Virus record (IMG/VR): IMGVR_UViG_3300000358_000010
Strand: one strand, 5' to 3'
Length of the DNA stretch: 61,575 nt
DNA from: a virus
Both the position numbers and the translations under genes were made by a program. Shown here in pieces: positions 553 through 61,552 of the stretch. The notes under the pieces were generated by a model. The model searched no databases. It saw nothing but the letters and a program-made list of their open reading frames with translations, and had not been told where the DNA came from. Each line of letters opens with the position of its first letter. Position 1 is the first letter of the stretch.

Positions 553-667
553 AATATAATAAAATTATTTCCTACTCTTTCAAAGGCTTTTCGGAACCCG
601 CCTATAAATTGACTATCTCTGTAAGCTTACGGTACAAAGATATAGGGATAGAGAACCGAGAACAATT

Positions 668-48343: not shown

Positions 48344-49516
48344 TCAAAACCTCACATTAGTTAATTGTCTTCCCTTAGAGAATACAGCCCATTTCCCATT
48401 GCCGCTATCAAATAACCGCAAATCCGACACCTCTCCGAAACGTTTGATGTTACCACATAAATCAACAATCCACCCACACTCTTTCTGAGGATGTGGACGA
48501 ATAGCCCGACCAACTATCTGATACCACATAGCAAGTGACATCGTAGGACGGGCCATAACAACCGTATCAAGCTCGGGATAATCAAAACCAGTAGTCAGAA
48601 CTCCGACATTGGCAACGACCGGGATTTCACCAGATTTGAACGCAGCAAGGATTCTTTCACGAGTAGATTTGGGAGTATCACCCGAAACAATAGCGCATCC
48701 GGGAATGGACCACGTAAGCTGTTCGGCTTCTTTCAAGAACCGGGTAAATACCAGTATTCCCTTTCGTTTACCTCCAGCTTTTGGATTCATCAGCCTTTGG
48801 ACGATATGGACGAGATAACTGTAAAAGTCGATTCGTTCATATTCCTTTTGGATTGATTTATCCGTATAGTCGGCACCAGTAGTGTTCACCCGTAAGTTGA
48901 GTTCATTCCATCCCGAAGGATTCATCGGATAGTAATTCAACTTTGCCAAATATCCCATATCTAAGAGAGTTGATACCTGTACATGGTAAATGACCTCTGA
49001 AAAGACATGAGGCTTTGTCCGGGTGATGAATTTCAGCATGGATCCGAAGTCACGTGAGGAAGACAATCTATAAGGAGTTGCCGTCAAGCCAAGAACCTTG
49101 CACTTCACTGCATCAAAAAAATCCTTGTACATTCCCTCTTTGGGGTTAACAAGGTGGCATTCGTCCACGATGATGTTCTTGAAGTGGATGAACAGTTCGG
49201 GATGATTCTTTACCGATCCGATTGTTGCGAATGTTATCCGGCTTATTTCCTTTGAGTTGAAAGAAGCCGAATAAATGCTACAGTCAAGAATACCATACGA
49301 GCAGAGCTTTTTAAAATTTTGTTCGACAATCTCTTTTGAAGGCTGGAACACTAAAGTATGTCCGTCAAGTCTTGCGGCTATATCCGCTATGATAAGGCTC
49401 TTTCCGCTTCCGGTCGGTAACACCATAATGGCATTTGTTTTCTTCGCCTTATTGTTAAAGAAAGAAACGGCAGCATCAGAGGCTTTCTGTTGATAATCTC
49501 GTAATACATAACTCAT
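48344..49516 (-). CDS. SF2 DEAD/DEAH-box DNA helicase (390 aa)
   Basis: VLPTGSGKS, IIVDECH, LGLTATP and QIVGRAIR motifs. Confidence 0.85.
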   Translation of the reverse strand: MSYVLRDYQQKASDAAVSFFNNKAKKTNAIMVLPTGSGKSLIIADIAARLDGHTLVFQPSKEIVEQNFKKLCSYGILDCSIYSASFNSKEISRITFATIGSVKNHPELFIHFKNIIVDECHLVNPKEGMYKDFFDAVKCKVLGLTATPYRLSSSRDFGSMLKFITRTKPHVFSEVIYHVQVSTLLDMGYLAKLNYYPMNPSGWNELNLRVNTTGADYTDKSIQKEYERIDFYSYLVHIVQRLMNPKAGGKRKGILVFTRFLKEAEQLTWSIPGCAIVSGDTPKSTRERILAAFKSGEIPVVANVGVLTTGFDYPELDTVVMARPTMSLAMWYQIVGRAIRPHPQKECGWIVDLCGNIKRFGEVSDLRLFDSGNGKWAVFSKGRQLTNVRF

Positions 49517-49992
49517 AAACCTTTCTCCTTTCGTAACTTCTTATTAAGTGCTTTGTAATACTTGATTAGTTGCTCATACTCAAAATCTGACATCTTAGTA
49601 TTTGATGCAGCTTTCACTTTTAGCAAGTCAAAATGCTGTTGTCCGATTTTGGCTATCAAATTCTCACGGTAGCCTTCAAGGTGGTCGGCACGGAAACGGT
49701 TGCACGCACGGCATTCGGCATGGCAATTGTTCTCATCAAATCGGGTAGCCAGATGCGTGCGGCTGAAATAGTGACCACAGTCGGCTTGCCCGAACGGTTT
49801 TATCTGTCCACATGATATACATCGGAAGAAACCGTTTGGCATACAATCACGAAGCCGGATGAAAAGGGAAAACTCTTTATCGAGCTTAGCTTTCAAATCC
49901 GGCTTCTTCTTTACTGTTACCCCTGCTTTATCAAACAGAGGTAAAGGATTGTCTTTTTTCTTAGCCTTGGTTCGTTTTATGTAGTATGGCAT
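49513..49992 (-). CDS. ninG: NinG/Rap-like recombination endonuclease (159 aa)
   Basis: CISCGQ...CGHYFSR...RFDENNCHAECRACN pattern of the NinG family. Confidence 0.7.
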   Translation of the reverse strand: MPYYIKRTKAKKKDNPLPLFDKAGVTVKKKPDLKAKLDKEFSLFIRLRDCMPNGFFRCISCGQIKPFGQADCGHYFSRTHLATRFDENNCHAECRACNRFRADHLEGYRENLIAKIGQQHFDLLKVKAASNTKMSDFEYEQLIKYYKALNKKLRKEKGL

Positions 49993-50396
49993 TCTACTAT
50001 TGGTTTACACAATTCAACAACTCGTTTACAATCCTCCACATCAAACATTCCTATGTGGCAAACTTCATATGGTATTCCTAATTGAATGGATAACCACAAA
50101 TAAGCTTTATTTCTATTTGAAGTGTTGGGGATATGTTTCTTCCAAATTTTATTGATAAGATTGGTCTTAGCTATTTGGTCAAAGTAGAAGTGGGCTTCCT
50201 TCTTGGCTTCTCTTAGCTCAGCATTTGCCAAACGTCCTAATGCTTGGTCTGTACCTTTATGCACACCTACATAAGCCCTGCAATCATGACACAGATAAAT
50301 CATACCGTAGGAACGTCCGTAGATTATGGAGCTATCCACGTATTCAGTAGGCTTACCGCAATAAGGGCAAATCTTTCCAGTTAATATTTCATTCAT
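49977..50396 (-). CDS. Zinc-ribbon protein (139 aa)
   Basis: CPYCGKPT...CHDCRAYV. Confidence 0.6.
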   Translation of the reverse strand: MNEILTGKICPYCGKPTEYVDSSIIYGRSYGMIYLCHDCRAYVGVHKGTDQALGRLANAELREAKKEAHFYFDQIAKTNLINKIWKKHIPNTSNRNKAYLWLSIQLGIPYEVCHIGMFDVEDCKRVVELCKPIVECHTT

Positions 50397-50400
50397 AATT

Positions 50401-50436
50401 TTTTAATTAAAAGCCCCGAAGCATATTCTCCGGGGC
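50401..50436 (-). terminator. Intrinsic terminator
   Basis: Stem GCCCCG/CGGGGC (12-nt loop) followed by TTTTAATTAAAA on the minus strand. Confidence 0.7.
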
Positions 50437-50688
50437 ACAACCATTATTTATTAACCCATGCCATTGATGTGTGGCTCACATTATTCCATCGGGAACACTA
50501 TCTGTATGCGCATTACAGAAATATCCATTTGCAACTGAATACTTTCATGTTCCCTTTCCAACACAAGTTTGTGGACGGGACCGGTAACGATCCGGCATAC
50601 ACACTTCCGGCTGTGCGCAGTGCATTCCATACGCCCGCCCATGTTTGCCTGCTATATCTTCACAGACCTTGCAGGCAGGTTAACAAAG

Positions 50689-51561
50689 TTATTCCATATA
50701 AGCCATTGAGAACTCTTTCGGAATAAACCGCCCGACTGGGATAGGTTTAGCAGATTCAATAGCCGTGTGAATTTCTCTCTTTCTGAACTCATGTCCCTTT
50801 TCTTTGGCTTGTTTCTCACATTCTTCCTCTTTGTTTTTGAGATAGTGGGTAATAAGCATCATCGCTCTATCAACATTGAAGGTATTCACGACAAAGGTTT
50901 GGACTCTTTCGTCTTCGTTATCTCCTTCCGTAAAGGTGATTTTCGTCTCAATTTGATAGAATTTCTTTTCATTCGGTTTAGATTCTTCGTCACGATCTTC
51001 AGTCTCATCGTCCATCTTATCAACGTATTCTGCCATAGTGATTTCATTTTTAAGATAGGCAAGCGAAGCATCGTCAACCTTGCGTTCTTTCAAGTTGTCA
51101 GTAAGAATCACGCAGGAATCGAACTCCTTTATCATTGTCGGGGTGAATCCGAACTGGTAATTGAGTTCAATGTAGTCTTTCAATATGATGCAAGCGTTCT
51201 GTATTCCGGTGGCATATAGCAAGAACTTATGTTTCTTGTCACCTATTTGCGCTTGAGCGATGTACGGATACAGATAATTGTTCTCATTCTCGAACGCCAA
51301 GCGGTTCTGGTTACTGACTTCCACTTCCTTGATACCGTCTGCTTCCATACTGAAACGAATTTTCGCCAAAGTGTCTTGGTCTATCAGCGTACCACGGTCG
51401 AAAAGAATTTCATTCCGTTCGATGATTACTGTTTCACCGGTATCTTCATCAATGAAAGATTCCTCCCATGTTTTGAGGACACGTTTTGCAAGGTACATGT
51501 TAAGCATCTTTTTCGGGTCAGATGTCACATACCGGATTTCTGTTTTTCTTGTTTCTATCAT
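50689..51561 (-). CDS. Hypothetical early protein (290 aa)
   Basis: ORF track. Acidic central region. No motif recognised. Confidence 0.65.
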   Translation of the reverse strand: MIETRKTEIRYVTSDPKKMLNMYLAKRVLKTWEESFIDEDTGETVIIERNEILFDRGTLIDQDTLAKIRFSMEADGIKEVEVSNQNRLAFENENNYLYPYIAQAQIGDKKHKFLLYATGIQNACIILKDYIELNYQFGFTPTMIKEFDSCVILTDNLKERKVDDASLAYLKNEITMAEYVDKMDDETEDRDEESKPNEKKFYQIETKITFTEGDNEDERVQTFVVNTFNVDRAMMLITHYLKNKEEECEKQAKEKGHEFRKREIHTAIESAKPIPVGRFIPKEFSMAYME

Positions 51562-51563
51562 AA

Positions 51564-52001
51564 CTAAATAAATTCTTGATTTCTTTGTATTTCCTGCTGG
51601 GCGTAAATCAGCATTTGATGTTCATTCGCAGCAGGCAGGTAAATTCCAGCTTGTGCCGCGCTCCAATTACGGAAGCGGTCAATACTCAGGGTCATTTCAC
51701 CTGTTGTCAGTTCGGCTGAACTGCGCAAGTAGATTACTTCCTTGCCCTTCTTGTTGACCGTTTTACGTTCAAATAAATCACGGTTGCAAGTCCTCTTATA
51801 GAAGTCTATTTTGGCTTCGTCAAGGCTGCAACCATACTCACTACCGAAATACCCTAAAAGAAGATGTAAATAGCTGTTTTGGGCAAGCGTGCGGTTAGGT
51901 AGTTTCTTTTTCACTTCCACCACCGCACGTTCACTAAACAGCTTGTTTACATACTCCTTGAACTTGGGTATTTGATATTCATTCTTCAAGTCGAACAGCA
52001 T
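51564..52001 (-). CDS. NinB/Orf-like recombination mediator (145 aa, tentative)
   Basis: RTLAQNSYLHLLLGYF resembles the NinB xxQNxxxH motif. Lies next to the SSB and exonuclease genes. Confidence 0.45.
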   Translation of the reverse strand: MLFDLKNEYQIPKFKEYVNKLFSERAVVEVKKKLPNRTLAQNSYLHLLLGYFGSEYGCSLDEAKIDFYKRTCNRDLFERKTVNKKGKEVIYLRSSAELTTGEMTLSIDRFRNWSAAQAGIYLPAANEHQMLIYAQQEIQRNQEFI

Positions 52002-52004
52002 ACG

Positions 52005-52469
52005 CTAAAAAGGCAAATCGTCCTTTACATTGCCATTAGCATCAATCGGAGGCGGAAAGTTCTGCGGCTGTTGCTGATAAGTCGGCTGCGGTGTAGGTTG
52101 TTGAATTGGTTGCTGTGCCAGTGTAGCTTGTGGGGATTGCGACACACCGCCACGCGCATCTATTTTGTAACACCGAATAGATGCCATACGTTTGAGTTCT
52201 CCGTCCTGATTCGTCCAAGAACGCCCTTGTAAGACAAATGATACAGTAACAACATCACCGGTTTTAAAGCGGTCCAGTTCGGTGCATTTATCGCCTGAGA
52301 ACTCTAAGGGAATAATATTTTCATACTCGCTACGCTCACCCGTATAAGGGTCATAAGTGGTAGCATCTAAAATAAATTCCCGTTTAGTAAATGGGGAACC
52401 ACCACTTTTAGATGGAATTTGGACGATCTGACCGATTTCGATTATCCGTCCGGTTATCTGATTTGCCAT
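52005..52469 (-). CDS. ssb: Single-stranded DNA-binding protein (DUF3127-type OB fold, 154 aa)
   Basis: OB-fold N-terminus, a Q/P-rich linker and an acidic tail ending DDLPF. Confidence 0.75.
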   Translation of the reverse strand: MANQITGRIIEIGQIVQIPSKSGGSPFTKREFILDATTYDPYTGERSEYENIIPLEFSGDKCTELDRFKTGDVVTVSFVLQGRSWTNQDGELKRMASIRCYKIDARGGVSQSPQATLAQQPIQQPTPQPTYQQQPQNFPPPIDANGNVKDDLPF

Positions 52470-53251
52470 TAATTTTCTCCTCCAAATATCTTTTTATCGG
52501 TGATTAATTCTCTGTTTTCTTCCAAGAACCGGATAAATTCCTCACAATGATTAGTGAGAATAGGTATATCACGTTCCGGGTTGAAAACGTATGTCTCAGT
52601 ATAGGTGTCCACCATATAACCGCCTTTGTTGAACTCTACGATATTGTATTCAAACGTCCGCACATCCGAACCGTTCTGCATAAGAGCGTATGGATAAACC
52701 AGATGTTGGTGATGGTCTTTGAACTTTCCTACAGTATAACTGCCAGTTGTCTTGATGTCATGAACACTGGTCGGCATCAATTCGTCTATCAGACCGTATA
52801 CCAATACGTCACCGAAAGCAGTATGCAGGATTGCTTCTACCCTCTGTTGGGTCAATGCGCCTTTAAAGTAATCGGCAAACTCACGGCAAAGAGAAATAGG
52901 GAAAACAAATGTACGGTTGTTATAAACAACTGTATAACAAGTATTTTCTGTATTCCTTTCTACATACATCTCGTTTGGCTTGCGATTTTCGATTAGAGCA
53001 TCTACCAATTCATTAAAGGCTGTGCCCTTATCAGCAGCTTCACTATCAAAAGGCTTGCGATTGATACGGTCTATTAGTTCGTGAAACTGTTGTTCGTGAA
53101 ATTCTTCGGGAGTGTGGGGTGGATTTTCTGACCACCCCCAATACTTATCCCAAATCACATCACTATTCAGATATCCCCAAAAGGCATCAAGAATCGTGGC
53201 GTAAAAACGATATTTAGGCTGCATCTGAATAAGTTTTTGTTTCTTTATCAA
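52469..53251 (-). CDS. PD-(D/E)XK exonuclease (RecB/Cas4-like, 260 aa)
   Basis: GLIDEL...VHDIKTTGSY...QHLVYPY, matching the D..ExK and QxxxY motifs. Confidence 0.7.
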   Translation of the reverse strand: MIKKQKLIQMQPKYRFYATILDAFWGYLNSDVIWDKYWGWSENPPHTPEEFHEQQFHELIDRINRKPFDSEAADKGTAFNELVDALIENRKPNEMYVERNTENTCYTVVYNNRTFVFPISLCREFADYFKGALTQQRVEAILHTAFGDVLVYGLIDELMPTSVHDIKTTGSYTVGKFKDHHQHLVYPYALMQNGSDVRTFEYNIVEFNKGGYMVDTYTETYVFNPERDIPILTNHCEEFIRFLEENRELITDKKIFGGEN

Positions 53252-54152
53252 ATACTAACCCCAAAGAGTTCACTTTGGCGGCAAACAAACTTCTCGCTTT
53301 CATCAAAGAACTACCAACGTGTTCAAATTCATTAATGTGAGAAGCAAATTCATTAGCAGAATTGGCATCGGTGATAAATTCAATACTCTCTTTGATTTCT
53401 TCTATCACCTTATCGTATTTCTCTTGTGCTTCTTTCTTGGCGGCAAGCATACCCAAATACGAATTGATTATTCTGGTAGTGATAAAGTCGTTTTTGGCAG
53501 TCGGATTGCCATTCTTGTCAAGGATGGTAGGAACCTCCATCACTGAAGGAAGATTGCAAGTGTTCTTACCGTCATTTCTTGAAGTAGGATCAAAAGTTAT
53601 AGTGCGTCTCTGTATGCCTCTCTCGCTCTTCATTTCGAGATAACCGAGCAAATCCAGTTCAGTAACGATGGAGTTGTAGGACTTCTCACGCAAAGCAGGG
53701 ATAAACACAGTGTCGTCACCCTCTTTTCTCGTGTCACGGTGGGCGACAAAAATAATATGCTTATTCAGACTTGAGAGTGTTCTTGCCATCCATGAAAACT
53801 CAGCATTAATACCACTCCAATCCCTGATAGACGGTTGCCGGCTGCCACATTTATAAGTAATAATGAAATCCATCATCTTCCCAATGGTATCTACTACCAT
53901 TGTCTGATAATCCGATAAATCTTCTTGCAAAACCTGTTGAACATCATTCCATGAAGTGACCTGTACGGTATCTATGTTTTCCAGATGCGCCATATTCATG
54001 CGTTTAACACCATTATCAAAGTCTAATAACAAAGGCTTCGGAGCACTCAATGCTACTGTACTCTTTCCCATACCTGCTTGACCGTAAATCATCATCTTTA
54101 CGGTGGTGGGGATTACTAATTCATTCGATTTCTTAATTAAGGACATAATCAT
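53214..54152 (-). CDS. AAA_24-type phage ATPase (Sak4/RecA-like, 312 aa)
   Basis: VKMMIYGQAGMGKSTVALSAPKPLLLDFDNG. Confidence 0.75.
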   Translation of the reverse strand: MIMSLIKKSNELVIPTTVKMMIYGQAGMGKSTVALSAPKPLLLDFDNGVKRMNMAHLENIDTVQVTSWNDVQQVLQEDLSDYQTMVVDTIGKMMDFIITYKCGSRQPSIRDWSGINAEFSWMARTLSSLNKHIIFVAHRDTRKEGDDTVFIPALREKSYNSIVTELDLLGYLEMKSERGIQRRTITFDPTSRNDGKNTCNLPSVMEVPTILDKNGNPTAKNDFITTRIINSYLGMLAAKKEAQEKYDKVIEEIKESIEFITDANSANEFASHINEFEHVGSSLMKARSLFAAKVNSLGLVFDKETKTYSDAA

Positions 54153-54165
54153 AAAATTTAAAGGG

Positions 54166-54486
54166 TTATTTACTAATTTCTTTCATTTCAGCTTTCGCCA
54201 GTGGAGACAACGTTTTCATATAATTACACTTGAAAGCTGCCGCATCCAGTTCAACTACATTGTATCGAACACCTGAGCGAACCTTTCCATCGGCATCCTT
54301 GTACCTCTTTACAATGCCTTCTTTGACCCATTTTGCAACATTCCCCTTTCCATAAGAAATGTGAGCTTGATTTTGGGTTATAAATTTGGGCTCTTTGAAC
54401 GAATCAATGCGTTCTTCCTTTCTACCTAATCCCTTAGCGTAGTCCACCAGTTTAAATAAAACTTCCTCCGGCATCTGTATTATCAT
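54166..54486 (-). CDS. Hypothetical (106 aa)
   Basis: ORF track. Confidence 0.55.
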   Translation of the reverse strand: MIIQMPEEVLFKLVDYAKGLGRKEERIDSFKEPKFITQNQAHISYGKGNVAKWVKEGIVKRYKDADGKVRSGVRYNVVELDAAAFKCNYMKTLSPLAKAEMKEISK

Positions 54487-54844
54487 AAGACCTCCTTATT
54501 CTTTCTGTTCGTTCCACTCTCGTTCTTCTTCCTTTTCTCATATCGCCTTGTTCGTGATAAAGCGAAAAAGAAAACACACATAATAGACAGCAGGCAACCA
54601 CCGTACGGCTAATGGGTGAAAAGTTCATCGTTAAACTTATACCCGATATTCTCTCAAACACAAGCGTTGCAAGCTCTCTCCCGTTCCTTAATTGAAGAAC
54701 CTCAAATGCTTTTTGTAGTTGGTTGTTTATCGTGCTAACCGCCCGGCATTTGAGATCAGCAATTTCTTTCTTTTCATACCCTTGTGCATACATCCGTGCT
54801 GTAATCTCGCATTCGGGTGTTAGTTCAGTTAATACTCTTTCCAT
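54452..54844 (-). CDS. LuxR/GerE-type HTH regulator with a C-terminal TM segment (130 aa)
   Basis: LTPECEITARMYAQGYEKKEIADLKCRAVSTINNQLQKAF, then VVACCLLCVFSFSLY. ACACGATTATG start context. Confidence 0.7.
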   Translation of the reverse strand: MERVLTELTPECEITARMYAQGYEKKEIADLKCRAVSTINNQLQKAFEVLQLRNGRELATLVFERISGISLTMNFSPISRTVVACCLLCVFSFSLYHEQGDMRKGRRTRVERTERIRRSYDNTDAGGSFI

Positions 54845-54863
54845 AATCGTGTAAATTAGACCA

Positions 54864-55085
54864 CTACTTAGTCATGTTATTGACGATATACATAGAATTG
54901 GTGTACTTATTCTTCGAAATGGTATATACATTCTTACCACCCGGAGCTACAACACCTTTTTCTCTCAATTCCTTGTTTATCTCATGGGCCTCTTGCCTGT
55001 AGCCAGTTACCTCAACTTCTGATAGCGGGATAATCTTCTGTTTTCCCGGCTTTACTTTTAAAATCGTTTCTCTGATTGTTGCCAT
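54864..55085 (-). CDS. Hypothetical (73 aa)
   Basis: ORF track. Confidence 0.55.
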   Translation of the reverse strand: MATIRETILKVKPGKQKIIPLSEVEVTGYRQEAHEINKELREKGVVAPGGKNVYTISKNKYTNSMYIVNNMTK

Positions 55086-55112
55086 AAAACTTATTGTTTA
55101 ATTAATGATTTG

Positions 55113-55194
55113 TGGATGGTAGAGGAGTCGAACCTCTCTCAATCATGCCAATTGGTTGCGCAACACGAAGCTCTAACCGATAAGCTAACCATCC
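55113..55194 (-). tRNA. tRNA-like gene with canonical acceptor, D and T arms but a 16-nt anticodon loop (non-canonical or pseudo-tRNA)
   Basis: Minus strand: GGATGGT-TA-GCTT/ATCGGTTA/GAGC-T-TCGTG[TTGCGCAACCAATTGG]CATGA-TTGAG-AGAGG/TTCGACT/CCTCT-ACCATCC-A. No 5-bp stem with a 7-nt loop can be drawn. Confidence 0.5.
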
Positions 55195-55272
55195 GGAATA
55201 AGAAAGGTGTACTATTCTCACGAACGGCACACCCAGTACAAACACAAAATAAAACACGACAAACAAAACATC

Positions 55273-55372
55273 TAAACGTCTGCCTGTACGGTATTTCCTT
55301 GCTATCGGCCGGATAGTAGGTCGCTAAGCATACAGAGTTCAAGCTCAAAGACTACCAGCCCTCAGACGTTTA
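55273..55372 (-). other. Long hairpin: 10-bp stem TAAACGTCTG/CAGACGTTTA enclosing 80 nt with an inner CTATC/GATAG hairpin, then a T-rich tract
   Basis: Exact inverted repeat at 55273..55282 and 55363..55372. Starts at the stop codon of the 59-aa ORF. Confidence 0.6.
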
Positions 55373-55549
55373 ATTTGTTCTTAATTCCCTGAATGCAAGT
55401 ATCACAAACGAAACGCATCCAATAAAAATGATACTCATTATTGTAATAGAGAATGTTTTCATAGGACTGTAAGTAGTAATAGCCCCATATAGCATACCAA
55501 TAGCACATATTGTCACCAGTATAGCTAAGATAAATTGAATTAGTTTCAT
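55370..55549 (-). CDS. Small two-TM membrane protein (59 aa), not in the track
   Basis: MKLIQFILAILVTICAIGMLYGAITTYSPMKTFSITIMSIIFIGCVSFVILAFRELRTN*. More plausible than the overlapping 84-aa Tyr/Trp/Asn-rich track ORF in another frame. Confidence 0.55.
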   Translation of the reverse strand: MKLIQFILAILVTICAIGMLYGAITTYSPMKTFSITIMSIIFIGCVSFVILAFRELRTN

Positions 55550-55920
55550 AATTATGTATATTAGTTAGTGCCTGTACCCCCATTGAAGAAAAGCTGTTAT
55601 GCTTGGTAGAACTCATATTTCAAGTTCAGTACAGGCTATATGTTCGAAAACAGTACGGACGCCCAACCCGTTTTCTTACTGCTCTGGGACGATTCTTTGC
55701 GGTGTTTTCTATTAATTGTTATACATTGTACAGCTCGCAAGCTCCAACTTGCTTATGTACGTTCGTTATCTTTGGTCAACCTTGTACAGCTTATAGTATT
55801 ACACCGTAAAGGTTTTCACAATCTTGTCAAAGAGCTTAATCAATAGCGCCCTACCCGATTCTCGCTATCGGTTGCCGTTCAATCCGTCAGTAGGGCTGTC
55901 GTGCGTTGCATAACCGTGTA

Positions 55921-56166
55921 TTATGCGTATCGGCTCAAACCTTGAACCTCACAAAGAGCATCGTAATCCATACCGCTATCTTCACCTGAGTCAGAACCTA
56001 AAAGAATAGTTTCATAAGTCTCAATCTCTTCTTTTATCACCTCAATAATATCAGCCTTACAATCTACGTTGTAAACTCTACAAGCAGTTTCTTCGTCCAT
56101 GCCCTCAACTGCTACCAAGTCCCTGCGAAGAGCATTTAAACCTTGTTCTAATTCATAAGTAGTCAT
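55921..56166 (-). CDS. Hypothetical acidic protein (81 aa)
   Basis: ORF track. ACGATTATG start context. Confidence 0.55.
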   Translation of the reverse strand: MTTYELEQGLNALRRDLVAVEGMDEETACRVYNVDCKADIIEVIKEEIETYETILLGSDSGEDSGMDYDALCEVQGLSRYA

Positions 56167-56177
56167 AATCGTAAGTA

Positions 56178-56504
56178 TTAAGCAATTGATAATAAATTAG
56201 CTTTTTTATAGCACCTGAACTCGCCACGCTCTGTATCATAGTAAGTCTGGACGGTATCATTCTTCGCTCTCTTGTCATTGCCTGTTATGGCGGGCATCAA
56301 CTTTTCATTGAGTGTACCATACGCCTCTCTTACAGAACCGTCTACTTTTTTGAAATAAAACTTGACGATCTTCTTTTTCATCTCAGCTTTCAATTTCATG
56401 TTTACCCAAGCAGACCTTAGAGCTTCAGACATTGAAAAGCCATTCTTTCTTACGAACTGCCAAGCCAATGACATTACTTCGTGTAAAAATTCTCTTGTTT
56501 TCAT
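56178..56504 (-). CDS. First rightmost early gene (108 aa), DUF2693/SH3-like (tentative)
   Basis: The KFYFKKVDGSVREAYGTL...YYDTERGEFRCYK pattern. Divergent from the repressor. ACGATTATG start context. Confidence 0.55.
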   Translation of the reverse strand: MKTREFLHEVMSLAWQFVRKNGFSMSEALRSAWVNMKLKAEMKKKIVKFYFKKVDGSVREAYGTLNEKLMPAITGNDKRAKNDTVQTYYDTERGEFRCYKKANLLSIA

Positions 56505-56597
56505 AATCGTGCGTTTTTAATATGTTTATACTATTGCTTATAAGAAGCAAAATTCGTTTCTTTGCAAAAGTGATTAGGTTATCACTGTTTGATGATG

Positions 56598-56605
56598 CAA
56601 ATATA
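56598..56605 (-). promoter_or_regulatory. -7 box (reverse complement TATATTTG) of the leftward early promoter
   Basis: Lies in the divergent region between the repressor and the early genes. Confidence 0.55.
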
Positions 56606-56620
56606 CTATCTTATTGCAAT

Positions 56621-56694
56621 ATATCGCTAAATATCGCAATAAAATATTGCTATATTGACAATATTTAACATTATGAATAAGATTAATATCGCAA
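56621..56694. promoter_or_regulatory. Operator candidates: three ATATCGC copies, including a 2x AATATCGCAA direct repeat
   Basis: ATATCGC at 56621, 56631 and 56686. AATATCGCAA at 56630..56639 and 56685..56694. The third site lies inside the repressor's 5' end. Confidence 0.5.
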
Positions 56695-57371
56695 GTTTAA
56701 GGAAGTCTCTGAGACTAAGGCAAAAGGATTTTGGTGAAAAAATTGGTATCAAACAAGCCTATTTGTCAGAAATAGAAAGTGGCAAAAAGCCTCTTACAGA
56801 GGAATTATATAATAATATTATAGAAGTATTTGGCATGGATAAAGTTTCTGAACACTTTATCAGCACGAATGATAGCGATATTATCGCAAATAAAAATACA
56901 AACGAAGCAGTACCTTTAAATCAGAACTTTATAATAAATGTACCTCTCGTGAACCAATACGCACAAGCCGGATATATATGCGGCTTCCAAGATGCTGCAT
57001 ACATAGCTACACTACCTACTATACCATTCATTATTGACCATGAAGCAAAAGGAAACTATGTAGCCTTTGAGGTCAGAGGAGACAGTATGAATGATGGAAC
57101 AGAAGAAAGCTATCTTGAAGGAGATAGGCTTCTTTGTAGAGAAATAGCTCCCTATCTATGGGCAGAGTCTAAATTGCATATTCGGAAATGGGATTTCGTT
57201 ATTGTACATGAAGGCGGAATTTTGGTAAAACGAATAATAGATCATAATGTAGAAAATCATACTATCACAATACACTCTTTGAATGACATGTATCCTGACA
57301 GAGTTATTGATTTGGCAGAAGTTAAACAAATCTTCAATGTGATAGAATTGCAAAGGCCAAGAAGGAGGTAG
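56673..57371 (+). CDS. cI/LexA-like repressor (XRE HTH plus S24 peptidase, 232 aa)
   Basis: Trimmed to the ATG at 56673. HTH is LRQKDFGEKIGIKQAYLSEIESGKK. S24 motifs are RGDSMNDG and ILVKRII. Confidence 0.85.
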   Translation: MNKINIASLRKSLRLRQKDFGEKIGIKQAYLSEIESGKKPLTEELYNNIIEVFGMDKVSEHFISTNDSDIIANKNTNEAVPLNQNFIINVPLVNQYAQAGYICGFQDAAYIATLPTIPFIIDHEAKGNYVAFEVRGDSMNDGTEESYLEGDRLLCREIAPYLWAESKLHIRKWDFVIVHEGGILVKRIIDHNVENHTITIHSLNDMYPDRVIDLAEVKQIFNVIELQRPRRR

Positions 57372-57455
57372 TTTAAAAGTTTAATATACAAACTATTAAA
57401 ACTGATGCTATGAAATTCAATCAATACACATGGAACTTATAAACAATAGAATATT

Positions 57456-58496
57456 ATGGAAGATATAACTTCAGAACTCAATGAGCAAAAAAGAAAAGTA
57501 GATTTTAATTCTTACGATATGAGTGTAAAGGAATTAATATCTATGGTAAATGATGGACTTATTGACATAGCCCCTGAATACCAAAGACAATTCAGATGGG
57601 ACACATTTAGGCAATCAACTCTTATTGAGTCTATTTTCTTGGGTATTCCAGTGCCTTCTTTGTTCATGGCAACCAATCCAGACGGCACATGGGAAGTGAT
57701 AGATGGGGTACAAAGACTTAGTTCCATCATTAATTTCGCTGCAGAAAAAGACTCTTCAGCAAGAAAGAAAATTAAAAAAGAAACTCCATTACAACTTTGC
57801 GAACTGAAGAAAATGAAGTCTTTTAATGGAAAGGATTTCAAAAGCTTACCGCGTTCATTACAAATTGACTTTTTGCTAAAACCGTTAAAAATAACAACAT
57901 TAAGTGACAAAAGTGACAAATCCATAAGATTTGACCTATTTGAAAGATTAAACACCGGAGGCATAAAATTATCAGACCAAGAGATTAGAAGCTGTATTTT
58001 CAGAGGTCAATTTAATGATTTTTTAAAAAGACTATCCTTAAATAACAATTTCAGAAAGGTTGTAAAACTTTCTAAAGGTGCAGAAAATGATGGGACAAGA
58101 GAAGAACTGATTCTTCGTTTCTTTTCATGTTTGAATAATAAAAGTTCCTTTGATCATAGTGTTGTTGACTTTCTGAACGATTACATGAATGATTCTTGCA
58201 GGAATTTTAATTATGAAATAAATGAGCGTATATTTAATAATGTGTTTACTCAATTATCCGGTTTAAGCCATGGCATAGTAAAAAGCAGAACAAGCACCAT
58301 AACTTCAGTTGTTCTTTTTGAAGCTGTTTCTGTTGGAGCCGCAGAGGCTTTGAAAGAAAAAGACTCCATTAACATTTCAGCCTTTTACGATTGGGTAACA
58401 GATAAAGACTTTAATAAATTAATCACTGGAGCTACAAACTCAAAACCTAAACTCCTTGCAAGAATAAAATTTTGTAGAAGCAAATTTTTAGAATAA
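57456..58496 (+). CDS. DUF262 (ParB/GmrSD N-terminal-like) protein (346 aa)
   Basis: DIAPEYQRQFRWDTFRQSTLIESIFLGIPVPSLF...VIDGVQRLSSI fits the DUF262 pattern. No DUF1524/HNH tail is present. Confidence 0.8.
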   Translation: MEDITSELNEQKRKVDFNSYDMSVKELISMVNDGLIDIAPEYQRQFRWDTFRQSTLIESIFLGIPVPSLFMATNPDGTWEVIDGVQRLSSIINFAAEKDSSARKKIKKETPLQLCELKKMKSFNGKDFKSLPRSLQIDFLLKPLKITTLSDKSDKSIRFDLFERLNTGGIKLSDQEIRSCIFRGQFNDFLKRLSLNNNFRKVVKLSKGAENDGTREELILRFFSCLNNKSSFDHSVVDFLNDYMNDSCRNFNYEINERIFNNVFTQLSGLSHGIVKSRTSTITSVVLFEAVSVGAAEALKEKDSINISAFYDWVTDKDFNKLITGATNSKPKLLARIKFCRSKFLE

Positions 58497-59143
58497 TGTT
58501 CGAAGATGTAAATGCTGAAGTCAATAGACGGTTAAAGGAGGTGAAATCATTTTATTCCCTAATAAAAGCCAACCCTGAAACTGAAGTTTTCGACATGAAG
58601 GTGTTCAAAGGTACATGTTTTGTAATACTGTATGGCGTTTTAGAATACACAATAACTGCTTCAGTTCAAAAATGCTTATCTATTATTAATCAAAAAAAGT
58701 ATGATATAATACATCTTAAACCGACATTGTATTCAATGGTTTTCAATGATGAATGTAATGCTATGATGGAAGCAAGAGACAAAAAATGGATGAAAAGACA
58801 TGATTTATTTTCCCAAATAAATTGCAGTCAAGTTTGTCATATAGAAGATAACTTATTTCCTGCAGGTTCAGGGAATATAAAATACCAACAAATAGAATCT
58901 ATATGGAAAATTTTTGGTATATCCGCTCCTGCAGTAAATGAAGACAAAATGAAAGGGCGTTTATCGACATTGGCAGATAATAGAAACGCAATAGCCCATG
59001 GACGGGAATTGGCTTCAGTTATAGGAGGAAGATATACTATAAGCGAAATAGAAAATATATATAATGACATTAGTACATACTGCAGCTATATAACTTCAGC
59101 ATTTGAAGAATACATTAATAATGAGGATTGTTTAATCCACTAA
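58496..59143 (+). CDS. HEPN-domain protein (MAE_28990/MAE_18760-like, 215 aa)
   Basis: Rx4H motif LADNRNAIAHGRE near the C-terminal third. All-helical. The start overlaps the DUF262 stop (TAATG). Confidence 0.7.
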   Translation: MFEDVNAEVNRRLKEVKSFYSLIKANPETEVFDMKVFKGTCFVILYGVLEYTITASVQKCLSIINQKKYDIIHLKPTLYSMVFNDECNAMMEARDKKWMKRHDLFSQINCSQVCHIEDNLFPAGSGNIKYQQIESIWKIFGISAPAVNEDKMKGRLSTLADNRNAIAHGRELASVIGGRYTISEIENIYNDISTYCSYITSAFEEYINNEDCLIH

Positions 59144-61435: not shown

Positions 61436-61481
61436 ATTGCGCAAAGATAGCAAATTAATTTAGATATGCTATCTTTGCGCA
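61436..61481. promoter_or_regulatory. Perfect 16-bp inverted repeat TTGCGCAAAGATAGCA / TGCTATCTTTGCGCAA with a -7 box (TATCTTTG) on each strand; integrase promoter/operator
   Basis: Arms at 61436..61451 and 61466..61481 with a 14-nt AT spacer. The minus-strand box lies about 60 nt upstream of the int ATG. Confidence 0.65.
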
Positions 61482-61552
61482 ATACAAAGAGAAACAGTTA
61501 ATTACATCTAAAAAGCTATAGCTTAAGTAGTTCTCTATACAGTTTTTGCACC

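Follow-up and report, generated by a model that had tools for sequence, protein, structure and literature searches.

The viral DNA of IMG/VR record IMGVR_UViG_3300000358_000010, a stretch of 61,575 nucleotides referred to here as the window, contains on its minus strand a gene for an 82-nt tRNA-shaped RNA, which we call type A, in which a loop of 16 nt takes the place of the 7-nt anticodon loop. The likeness of type A to tRNA is confirmed to be far above chance, and the element belongs to a conserved family confined to phage contigs, without a canonical sibling in viral or metagenome collections. Judged by its sequence, type A is a non-decoding RNA, failing the features of a 7-nt loop and a conserved anticodon despite passing the tRNA covariance model. 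The explanation that we favor, and to which we give about an even chance of being correct, is that type A is a functional tRNA mimic, which would be excised by RNase P and RNase Z and receive an added CCA, with the enlarged loop giving specificity and the early mRNA being divided.

Structure and conservation of the type A element

Read on the minus strand from 55194 to 55113, the element is GGATGGT-TA-GCTT-ATCGGTTA-GAGC-T-TCGTG-TTGCGCAACCAATTGG-CATGA-TTGAG-AGAGG-TTCGACT-CCTCT-ACCATCC-A. All of the parts named in a preliminary description of this DNA (acceptor, D and T arms, variable loop, and a 5-bp anticodon-like stem) are present in the sequence, with one G.U pair (G29.U50) in the anticodon-like stem. 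The same description stated that no register provides a 5-bp stem with a 7-nt loop, and this held when all registers of positions 25-58 were enumerated, the best of them giving 4 of 5 pairs. Type A shares with canonical tRNA (RF00005) the 7-bp acceptor stem, a D arm with G18G19, a 5-bp T stem with a TTCGANT loop, a 5-nt variable region, and discriminator A; the nucleotides of the class I tRNA tertiary fold are also found (U8, A14, G18G19, A21, and the TTCGANT T-loop). It differs from canonical tRNA in the 16-nt loop, in having no conserved anticodon, and in that CCA is encoded in only a few variants.

When the 61.5-kb window was analyzed with ARAGORN, as the preliminary description had advised, a single gene was reported, at 55112-55194 (-), under the name 'tRNA-??? 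(tgcg)'; thus, the element was detected as a tRNA gene, but no isotype was assigned to it. Across the family, ARAGORN isotype calls are inconsistent (???, Arg, Thr). The Rfam tRNA model RF00005 matched type A with 42.6 bits, compared with a gathering score of 29 (E = 2.3e-7), and in this alignment 13 loop bases were handled as an insertion. The default Rfam scan in gathering mode makes no type A call because of its speed filters, and Rfam has no dedicated family for the element.

The DNA around type A is 77% identical to that of the temperate Bacteroides phage BS-TP2 (host B. salyersiae) and of a human fecal phage scaffold, and type A is present in both of them, unannotated in the GenBank record of BS-TP2. 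Scanning IMG/VR for a pattern consisting of the D arm, 20-45 free bases, and then GGTTCGA returned at least 120 contigs. Among the matches listed, 122 elements were extracted (from 120 viral contigs, BS-TP2, and MT839827), and in all 122 the spacing was 35-36 nt, which corresponds to the enlarged loop, and a loop of 16-17 nt was kept. The same D arm with canonical spacing (22-30) had no match in 241 million metagenome records. A pattern made of the loop and the T arm gave 17 matches in 185,579 species-representative genomes, all of them chance matches in unrelated contexts, with no copies of the element in these host genomes.

Covariation among homologues, a check that the preliminary description had named, was seen in the stems. 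The set comprised 29 distinct sequences, covering the cloverleaf and the upstream hairpin described below; 97% of the cells were paired, 12 pairs had changes on both sides, and the observed covariation score was reached by none of 500 shuffles. In control alignments where the 3' partners were slid by 1-3 columns, only 39-51% were paired. G.U intermediates were frequent, indicating that selection acts on this RNA strand, and the 3:70 pair of the variants is A-U, G.U, or G-C. Apart from one +1 subgroup, no indel decay was found. Invariant within type A are the D arm, the elbow nucleotides, and 8 of the 16 loop positions. Short open reading frames (ORFs) overlap the element on both strands, and a protein-coding reading was rejected because the substitutions are compensatory in the stems, not codon-like.

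The enlarged loop has the family consensus Y-T-G-Y-G-C-A-R-N-M-A-A-T-T-N-N, with U33, GCA, and AAUU invariant, and its variants include AACC, AAAC (the commonest), AATC, and AAAT. The triplet following U33 is mostly GCG, and in copies with otherwise identical bodies it is GTG, GAG, or TCG; an anticodon change between such close relatives argues against a decoding tRNA, which could not tolerate it. According to one suggestion of the preliminary description, the element could be a tRNA with a 9-nt insertion or mini-intron. However, excision of 9 nt at the canonical 37/38 site leaves C37, among the 9-nt excisions that keep U33 none places a purine at position 37 of every variant, and the variants cannot be reconciled with one common excision rule. 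Together with the drifting anticodon and the lack of a sibling with a normal loop in viral and metagenome collections, this leaves the insertion without support. No splicing endonuclease for mini-introns of this kind is known from bacteria, and a 9-nt insert, being far too short, cannot be a group I intron. Since the triplet drifts and no legal loop is obtained by 9-nt excision, type A should not decode.

In the window, the loop contains two 8-nt palindromes, TTGCGCAA and CCAATTGG, and to this extent the preliminary description, in which the loop was built from two palindromes, was accurate. Family-wide, only the first palindrome is largely kept, and only the AATT core of the second is invariant. 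The double change from TTGCGCAA to CTGCGCAG preserves the first palindrome, and the variants TTGAGCAA and TTTCGCAA break it; the second is not conserved, being replaced by ACAATTGG, CCAATTAT, TCAATTCA, and others. It was also suggested that the RNA might dimerize, which is possible and agrees with the double change that keeps the first of them, but the two variants in which the first is broken and the poor conservation of the second argue in the other direction. Two further ideas about the loop were rejected: mimicry of an NCCA 3' end, because the CC is not conserved, and mimicry of the 16S rRNA sequence 'GCGCAACC', because an 8-mer match to rRNA is, by our estimate, expected by chance.

The best sign that the loop is functional, rather than filler, is the persistence of its motif in type D, a diverged sister in which no recognizable D stem is left, the acceptor stem and T arm are retained, and a loop of 17 nt is closed by 5 bp. 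The motif G-Y-G-C-A-(A)-C-C-A-A-U is common to the loops of type A and type D. Because the loop is unlike a natural anticodon loop, a role as a decoy for anticodon nucleases, also among the earlier proposals, is not especially favored.

The cassette slot and its leader hairpin

The slot that type A occupies was surveyed in 80 related loci, which were anchored on the downstream gene for a helix-turn-helix (HTH) protein and searched with the type A covariance model. Type A was found in 36 loci and type B in 36 others, while 3 loci had type C, 3 had an HNH gene, 1 had the hairpin alone, and 1 was ended by the end of the contig. Type B, of 68 nt, lies in the same position behind the same hairpin; its acceptor stem is of 7 bp, its T arm is canonical, a D arm is present, and what is left of the anticodon arm is CCTC-ATTT-GAGG. 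Within the 80-locus set the type B copies encode CCA, whereas others (e.g., L226 and L259) do not, and no call was made on type B by ARAGORN. Type C places 127 nt in the slot, with a D arm like that of tRNA-Leu and a large insert; if it is charged at all, the amino acid may be leucine, as the LeuRS of E. coli disregards the anticodon. The HNH contigs (L143, L144, and L146) carry a 398-bp segment (L143 2326-2723) with a free-standing gene for a 120-aa HNH endonuclease. This segment takes the place of the element, starting 4 nt ahead of the element's 5' end and stopping 11 nt short of its 3' end, and the hairpin remains. The flanks of these contigs are 90-99% identical to element-bearing loci, a pattern that suggests homing-endonuclease traffic at the slot. 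Only the 7-bp acceptor stem, the canonical T arm, and discriminator A are common to the unrelated tRNA-shaped elements found in it, which span 61-166 nt and are likewise without an anticodon loop.

Positioned directly upstream of type A, the leader hairpin is capped by a GUGA tetraloop on a 4-bp inner stem, which a 1x1 internal loop separates from the 7-bp outer stem (GGTGTGC/GTACACC). Among its relatives the outer stem can be of any sequence and is fully covarying, whereas the inner stem is G.U/U-A/C-G/U-A and the tetraloop, of the GNRA class, is GUGA (or GCGA), usually with a U-run after the hairpin. A scan for the apical 14-mer and a T-run returned at least 120 contigs, in at least 104 distinct contexts, and the apical motif GTYYGYGARRATAG, joined to unrelated outer stems, is present in over 100 distinct contexts of gut phages, where tRNAs, tRNA-like elements, or ORFs come next. 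No family for the hairpin was found in Rfam. It may be an RNA element in its own right, serving as a protein-binding leader, a regulated terminator, or a small RNA. A plain intrinsic terminator was considered and rejected, since tRNAs and tRNA-like elements begin 5-12 nt later, leaving no room for a promoter, two copies lack a U-run, and a simple terminator scan gives no flag.

The hairpin is itself preceded by a T-rich, C-poor tract. In 121 contexts, the 20 nt upstream of the hairpin are T-rich and contain 2-8% C, and TTTG peaks at -8 and -14. The tract may be the -7 region of a Bacteroides-type promoter or a U/G-rich leader; we take it to be compatible with a Bacteroides -7 promoter element, with transcription presumably starting at the base of the hairpin.

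A generalized hairpin motif was then applied to all fetched loci, giving 142 distinct contexts in which an element was sought within 30 nt. In 64 of these, what follows the hairpin is an element combining an acceptor stem of 7 bp, a T-loop on a 5-bp T stem, and a discriminator. With duplicates removed, 52 sequences of 61-171 nt are left, and just 4 of them are canonical tRNAs. We propose to group together, as hairpin-linked tRNA-like cassettes, those acceptor/T-arm elements that have discriminator A, do not have a 7-nt anticodon loop, and lie 5-15 nt after a GTYYGYGARRATAG hairpin; type A of the window and its leader hairpin have all of these properties. In Rfam searches the other cassette types gave weak to moderate tRNA matches only, with no match to Y RNA or C4, and a single tmRNA match of 17 bits, compared with a gathering score of 47.

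On the minus strand of one contig (L220, 800-1700), four different tRNA-like elements of 71, 98, 67, and 83 nt lie in tandem, with no sizeable ORF between them, and none of the four has a 7-nt anticodon loop. The T-rich tract is repeated before each module in L220, and two of the four elements are preceded by both the tract and the motif hairpin, one such hairpin being without a U-run. This tandem array suggests that the elements are small-RNA genes rather than simple mRNA punctuation.

There is a second tRNA-shaped element in the window (Table 1). It has an acceptor stem GGGCGGG/CCCGTCC (with G3.U70), discriminator A, a minimal D arm, and a T-like arm GCCGG-ATCGTTA-CCGGT whose T loop is non-canonical, and a 7-bp 'anticodon' stem closes a loop of 8 nt. 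Neither ARAGORN nor the Rfam gathering scan detected this element, and searching for variants with a 15-mer of its T arm gave mostly chance matches, and otherwise identical copies only. In MT838892, the same second slot, with identical flanks, holds a different element, a 166-nt type C with a tRNA-Leu-like D arm, and cassette exchange is therefore seen at two slots.

Proposed function and competing explanations

If type A is a tRNA mimic, it would be transcribed with the early genes and fold into an L-shape. Its 5' end would be released by the host RNase P, its 3' end would be finished by RNase Z or exonucleases and the CCA-adding enzyme, and the product would be a stable RNA of ∼82-85 nt; the same cuts would also divide the early mRNA at type A. 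The acceptor/T-arm half would then engage a factor that recognizes tRNA, with the enlarged loop giving type-specific recognition. Because codons are not expected to pair with it, type A would act as a mimic of tRNA, and one possibility for its partner is a host enzyme directed at tRNA or a defense protein. A mimic was among the readings offered in the preliminary description, and it is the one favored by an element that is conserved, covarying, and non-decoding.

The usual explanations for phage tRNAs are codon usage and the replacement of tRNAs cut by host defenses, and neither suits non-decoding tRNA shapes. Conserved, diverse, and slot-swapped elements in abundant human-gut phages suggest instead that the tRNA shape is used in its own right, whether to signal processing or to mimic a tRNA toward host factors that bind tRNAs. 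The breadth and cassette behavior of anticodon-less tRNA look-alikes in gut phages would surprise a specialist, and these elements fall into an annotation gap: in addition to the inconsistent isotypes and the blank BS-TP2 locus, most of the sister types are invisible to tRNA finders. The hairpin motif, with more than 100 phage contexts and no entry in Rfam, adds another unexplained RNA element. BS-TP2 growing on Bacteroides salyersiae is a cultured system in which a short element of this kind, easily deleted or mutated, is directly testable.

Several known RNAs resemble type A in principle, but it is a member of none of their families. The C4 antisense RNA of phages P1 and P7 and the CI RNA of P4 are tRNA-like immunity RNAs of temperate phages that are processed by RNase P; type A is likewise small, structured, and embedded in an operon of a temperate phage, at its immunity region, and its likeness to tRNA should make it attractive to RNase P, but it has no Rfam C4 match and no complementary target in the operon, and forms a full cloverleaf. 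The vtRNA/TMER transcripts of MHV68 and the mascRNA of MALAT1 are non-aminoacylated tRNA look-alikes with aberrant anticodon arms, whose cleavage by RNase P and RNase Z defines the ends of an adjacent hairpin or long RNA. The conserved hairpin directly upstream of type A is reminiscent of this arrangement, although those RNAs are eukaryotic products of Pol III or Pol II, whereas here the hairpin is 5' of the element, the host is bacterial, and processing is predicted. Non-decoding or odd tRNA-related RNAs located beside or among tRNA genes include the 'species 1 and 2' RNAs of T4 and tRNA-Other of Bacillus cereus; these have no sequence relation to type A, and neither has a leader hairpin, cassette exchange, or an enlarged conserved loop. 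In the bacterial Y RNA YrlA, a tRNA-like part is recognized by tRNA enzymes (PMC4201824), and mimicry of the acceptor/T-arm 'top half' without an anticodon is common to type A, tmRNA, and YrlA. In contrast to these RNAs, type A does not have a tag reading frame, pseudoknots, a conserved G3.U70, or a Ro-binding stem. The Rfam tmRNA and Y RNA models gave no match to type A, and within its 82 nt there is no tag ORF and ARAGORN makes no tmRNA call.

We did not find type A described in the literature that was searched on DUF2693, on tRNA-like elements of phages and Bacteroides, and on BV01/Salyersviridae. In a survey of viral structured RNAs, a motif named DNAVirus_2961 'only sometimes' overlaps an ARAGORN tRNA-Arg call (PMC10690425), and this motif could be the same element.

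A number of points weigh against a functional mimic with a specific loop. The transcription of type A, its processing by RNase P and RNase Z, the addition of CCA, and the stability of the product are predictions from its shape. The minimum-free-energy fold that RNAfold gives for the unmodified RNA is not the cloverleaf, and the z-score is only -2.1. The invariance of the D arm was fixed by the search pattern, and although the D arm is also conserved in loci that were found through the neighboring HTH protein and the covariance model, that model was built from sequences selected by the D-arm pattern, making the conservation partly an effect of the search. An HNH gene in place of the element in three contigs, and the hairpin alone in another, indicate that the element may be dispensable. 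Finally, the loop motif of type A is missing from types B and C, and for a function common to all types, if there is one, the loop may not be central.

In the alternative RNAfold structure, the 5' half of the D arm pairs with the 3' half of the loop. This fold was not adopted, because the pairing is disrupted in the commonest variant (AAAC), and because the anticodon-like stem covaries (C-G to U-A).

What leads RNAfold to this structure is a complementarity at 9 of 11 positions, read on the minus strand, between GCUUAUCGGUU in the 5' half of the D arm with its loop (55170-55185) and AACCAAUUGGC in the 3' half of the enlarged loop (55148-55158). A comparable complementarity between D region and loop is present in type D. 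It could be a tertiary contact, a conformational switch, or chance.

The main rival of the mimic, possible though rather unlikely in our estimate, is that type A is a cis-acting processing handle ('tRNA punctuation'), whose tRNA fold brings in RNase P and RNase Z, so that the early transcript is severed between hairpin and downstream ORFs. The cut would fix where a hairpin RNA ends or where the downstream mRNA begins, and the excised RNA would be a by-product without function in trans. The features common to all types (acceptor stem, T arm, and discriminator) are just those of a minimal RNase P/Z substrate, and real tRNAs are found in the same post-hairpin position in other phages. Two hairpins before tRNA-like elements are without a U-run, which fits a 3' end made by RNase P and not one made by termination. 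Also consistent with a handle, the next ORF (73 aa) starts 28 nt past type A and has an AU-rich leader, and the element can be lost or replaced. However, four tandem tRNA-like elements without sizeable ORFs, as in L220, exceed what punctuation needs. In addition, a handle should not constrain the loop, yet half of the loop positions are invariant in type A together with the D arm and the elbow, and the loop motif persists in type D despite the decayed D stem.

A broader and more speculative version of the mimic, which we consider unlikely as it stands, is that the swappable anticodon-less elements of gut Bacteroides phages form a repertoire, transcribed where the early operon begins and sometimes arrayed in tandem, that acts in trans on host factors recognizing the body or the 3' end of tRNAs. 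Examples would be decoys or inhibitors of tRNA-directed defense toxins that modify or cleave the acceptor end or the elbow, or, alternatively, carriers charged by anticodon-independent synthetases for non-ribosomal use. If such a repertoire exists, the turnover of cassettes at fixed slots would reflect an arms race, and the leader hairpin would either be a second small RNA or serve all of the cassettes as a signal for expression or processing.

It is improbable that type A works as an antisense immunity RNA in the manner of P1/P7 C4 or P4 CI, with the exposed loop pairing within the operon to terminate transcription or block translation and the cassette types representing immunity specificities. 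In favor of this, type A adjoins the immunity region of a temperate phage, its loop offers a long stretch of conserved single-stranded sequence, and cassette exchange recalls the swapping of immunity modules. But the best duplex between the loop and the minus-strand RNA of 49000-57600 has an energy of -14.9 kcal/mol, compared with -13.4 to -17.5 for shuffled controls, and when RNAduplex was run with the loop over the remainder of the window, only the element's own antisense strand stood out. The Rfam C4 model (RF01695) had no match at E <= 10 in 54800-56200, and the corresponding loop of type B is only 4 nt. With loop duplexes at the chance level, an antisense regulator of its own operon was rejected.

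A tRNA pseudogene, drifting without function from an ancestral phage tRNA, is very improbable. It would account for the absence of a usable anticodon and for the loss or replacement of type A in some lineages, but the element is retained in more than 120 viral contigs, the changes in its stems are compensatory rather than disruptive, decay by indels is confined to the single subgroup noted above, and the acceptor and T arms are kept across many unrelated cassette types. On the grounds of covariation and breadth, a pseudogene was rejected, and the decaying tRNA that the preliminary description had listed among its readings is not supported.

We place equally little belief in a site acting as DNA, where the tRNA shape would be incidental and the palindromes would serve as an operator, as the core of a recombination or attachment site, or as a homing-endonuclease target. 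The survival of the first palindrome as CTGCGCAG, the exact replacement of the element by an HNH endonuclease gene in three contigs, and an inverted repeat upstream of the integrase gene, perfect over 16 bp and bounded by TTGCGCAA, are in line with such a site. However, the second palindrome is not conserved, and covariation that tolerates G.U pairs is strand-specific, and hence acts on RNA. The element lies inside an operon, ∼5 kb from the integrase gene, so that a role as attachment site is unlikely. A repeated operator was rejected because TTGCGCAA is not enriched in the window, with 19 matches (<=1 mismatch) compared with 25.8 expected.

Least credible of all, and almost certainly wrong, is a decoding tRNA, either tRNA-Arg(GCG) from which a 9-nt intron is removed or one whose expanded loop the ribosome tolerates: the body is that of a perfect class I tRNA and ARAGORN, assuming an intron, reports tRNA-Arg (gcg) for some members, but this was rejected on the loop registers, C37, the lack of a common excision rule, and the drift of the triplet to GUG, GAG, and UCG, and other types in the same slot do not have any anticodon arm.

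Genomic setting in the window

Type A is located in the early operon, just downstream of the repressor/DUF2693 switch region. The order on the minus strand is WYL_2/DUF2693, an 81-aa ORF, the DUF2693-FD RNA, an 84-aa ORF, the T-rich tract, the leader hairpin, and type A, and on the 3' side of type A the 73-aa ORF is followed by genes for the HTH protein, a Sak4-type ATPase, a PD-(D/E)XK nuclease, and SSB. The coordinates of the features are collected in Table 1.

Table 1. Positions of the two tRNA-shaped elements, their leader regions, and neighboring features in the window
Feature	Position	Strand	Evidence
Type A tRNA-shaped RNA gene, 82 nt	55113..55194	-	sequence, ARAGORN, Rfam, covariation
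Type A acceptor	55188-55194 paired with 55114-55120	-	sequence
Type A D arm	55170-55185	-	sequence
Type A anticodon-like stem	55164-55168 paired with 55143-55147	-	sequence
Type A enlarged 16-nt loop TTGCGCAACCAATTGG, where tRNA has a 7-nt anticodon loop	55148..55163	-	
Type A variable region	55138-55142	-	sequence
Type A T arm	55121-55137	-	sequence
Type A discriminator A	55113	-	sequence
T-rich run TTTCTT after leader hairpin	55200-55205	-	
Leader hairpin, 11 nt before type A start	55206..55233	-	sequence, covariation of both stems
Apical motif GTTCGTGAGAATAG of leader hairpin	55212-55225	-	
T-rich, C-poor tract TTTTGTTTGTCGTGTTTTATTTTGTGTTTGTACT upstream of hairpin	55235..55267	-	conserved where flanks otherwise diverge
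Second tRNA-shaped element, 69 nt	50572..50640	-	sequence; 5 nt after second hairpin
Second leader hairpin, outer stem TGCCTGC/GCAGGCA, apical motif GTCTGTGAAGATAT, no U-run	50646..50677	-	motif search
DUF2693-FD RNA (RF02926)	55848..55896	-	77.9 bits, gathering score 44.5
CI-like repressor (HTH_3 + Peptidase_S24), divergent to early operon	56655-57371	+	

The DUF2693-FD RNA lies ∼650 nt upstream of type A in the same early operon, and a functional link to type A would be speculative. In some relatives, L082 and L083 among them, it is found directly before the T-rich tract, the hairpin, and a tRNA-like element. The DUF2693-FD RNA sits downstream of the WYL_2/DUF2693 gene, which is a Cro-like position in the switch region, both in the window and in two relatives (L189 and L305). 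Some relatives have two copies of it, and the early operon is unusually rich in small structured RNAs.

Immediately after the gene for the CI-like repressor are a GmrSD_N (DUF262-type) protein and its partner ORF (57456-59143, +), which look like a defense module borne by the prophage and expressed in the lysogen. A DUF805b RNA motif (RF02914; 44.2 bits) lies at 569-604 (-), at the far end of the window. The 16-bp inverted repeat is perfect (TTGCGCAAAGATAGCA...TGCTATCTTTGCGCAA, 61437-61482) and lies just upstream of, or overlaps, the start of the integrase ORF; its outer 8 bases are the same as the first palindrome of the type A loop, perhaps by coincidence.

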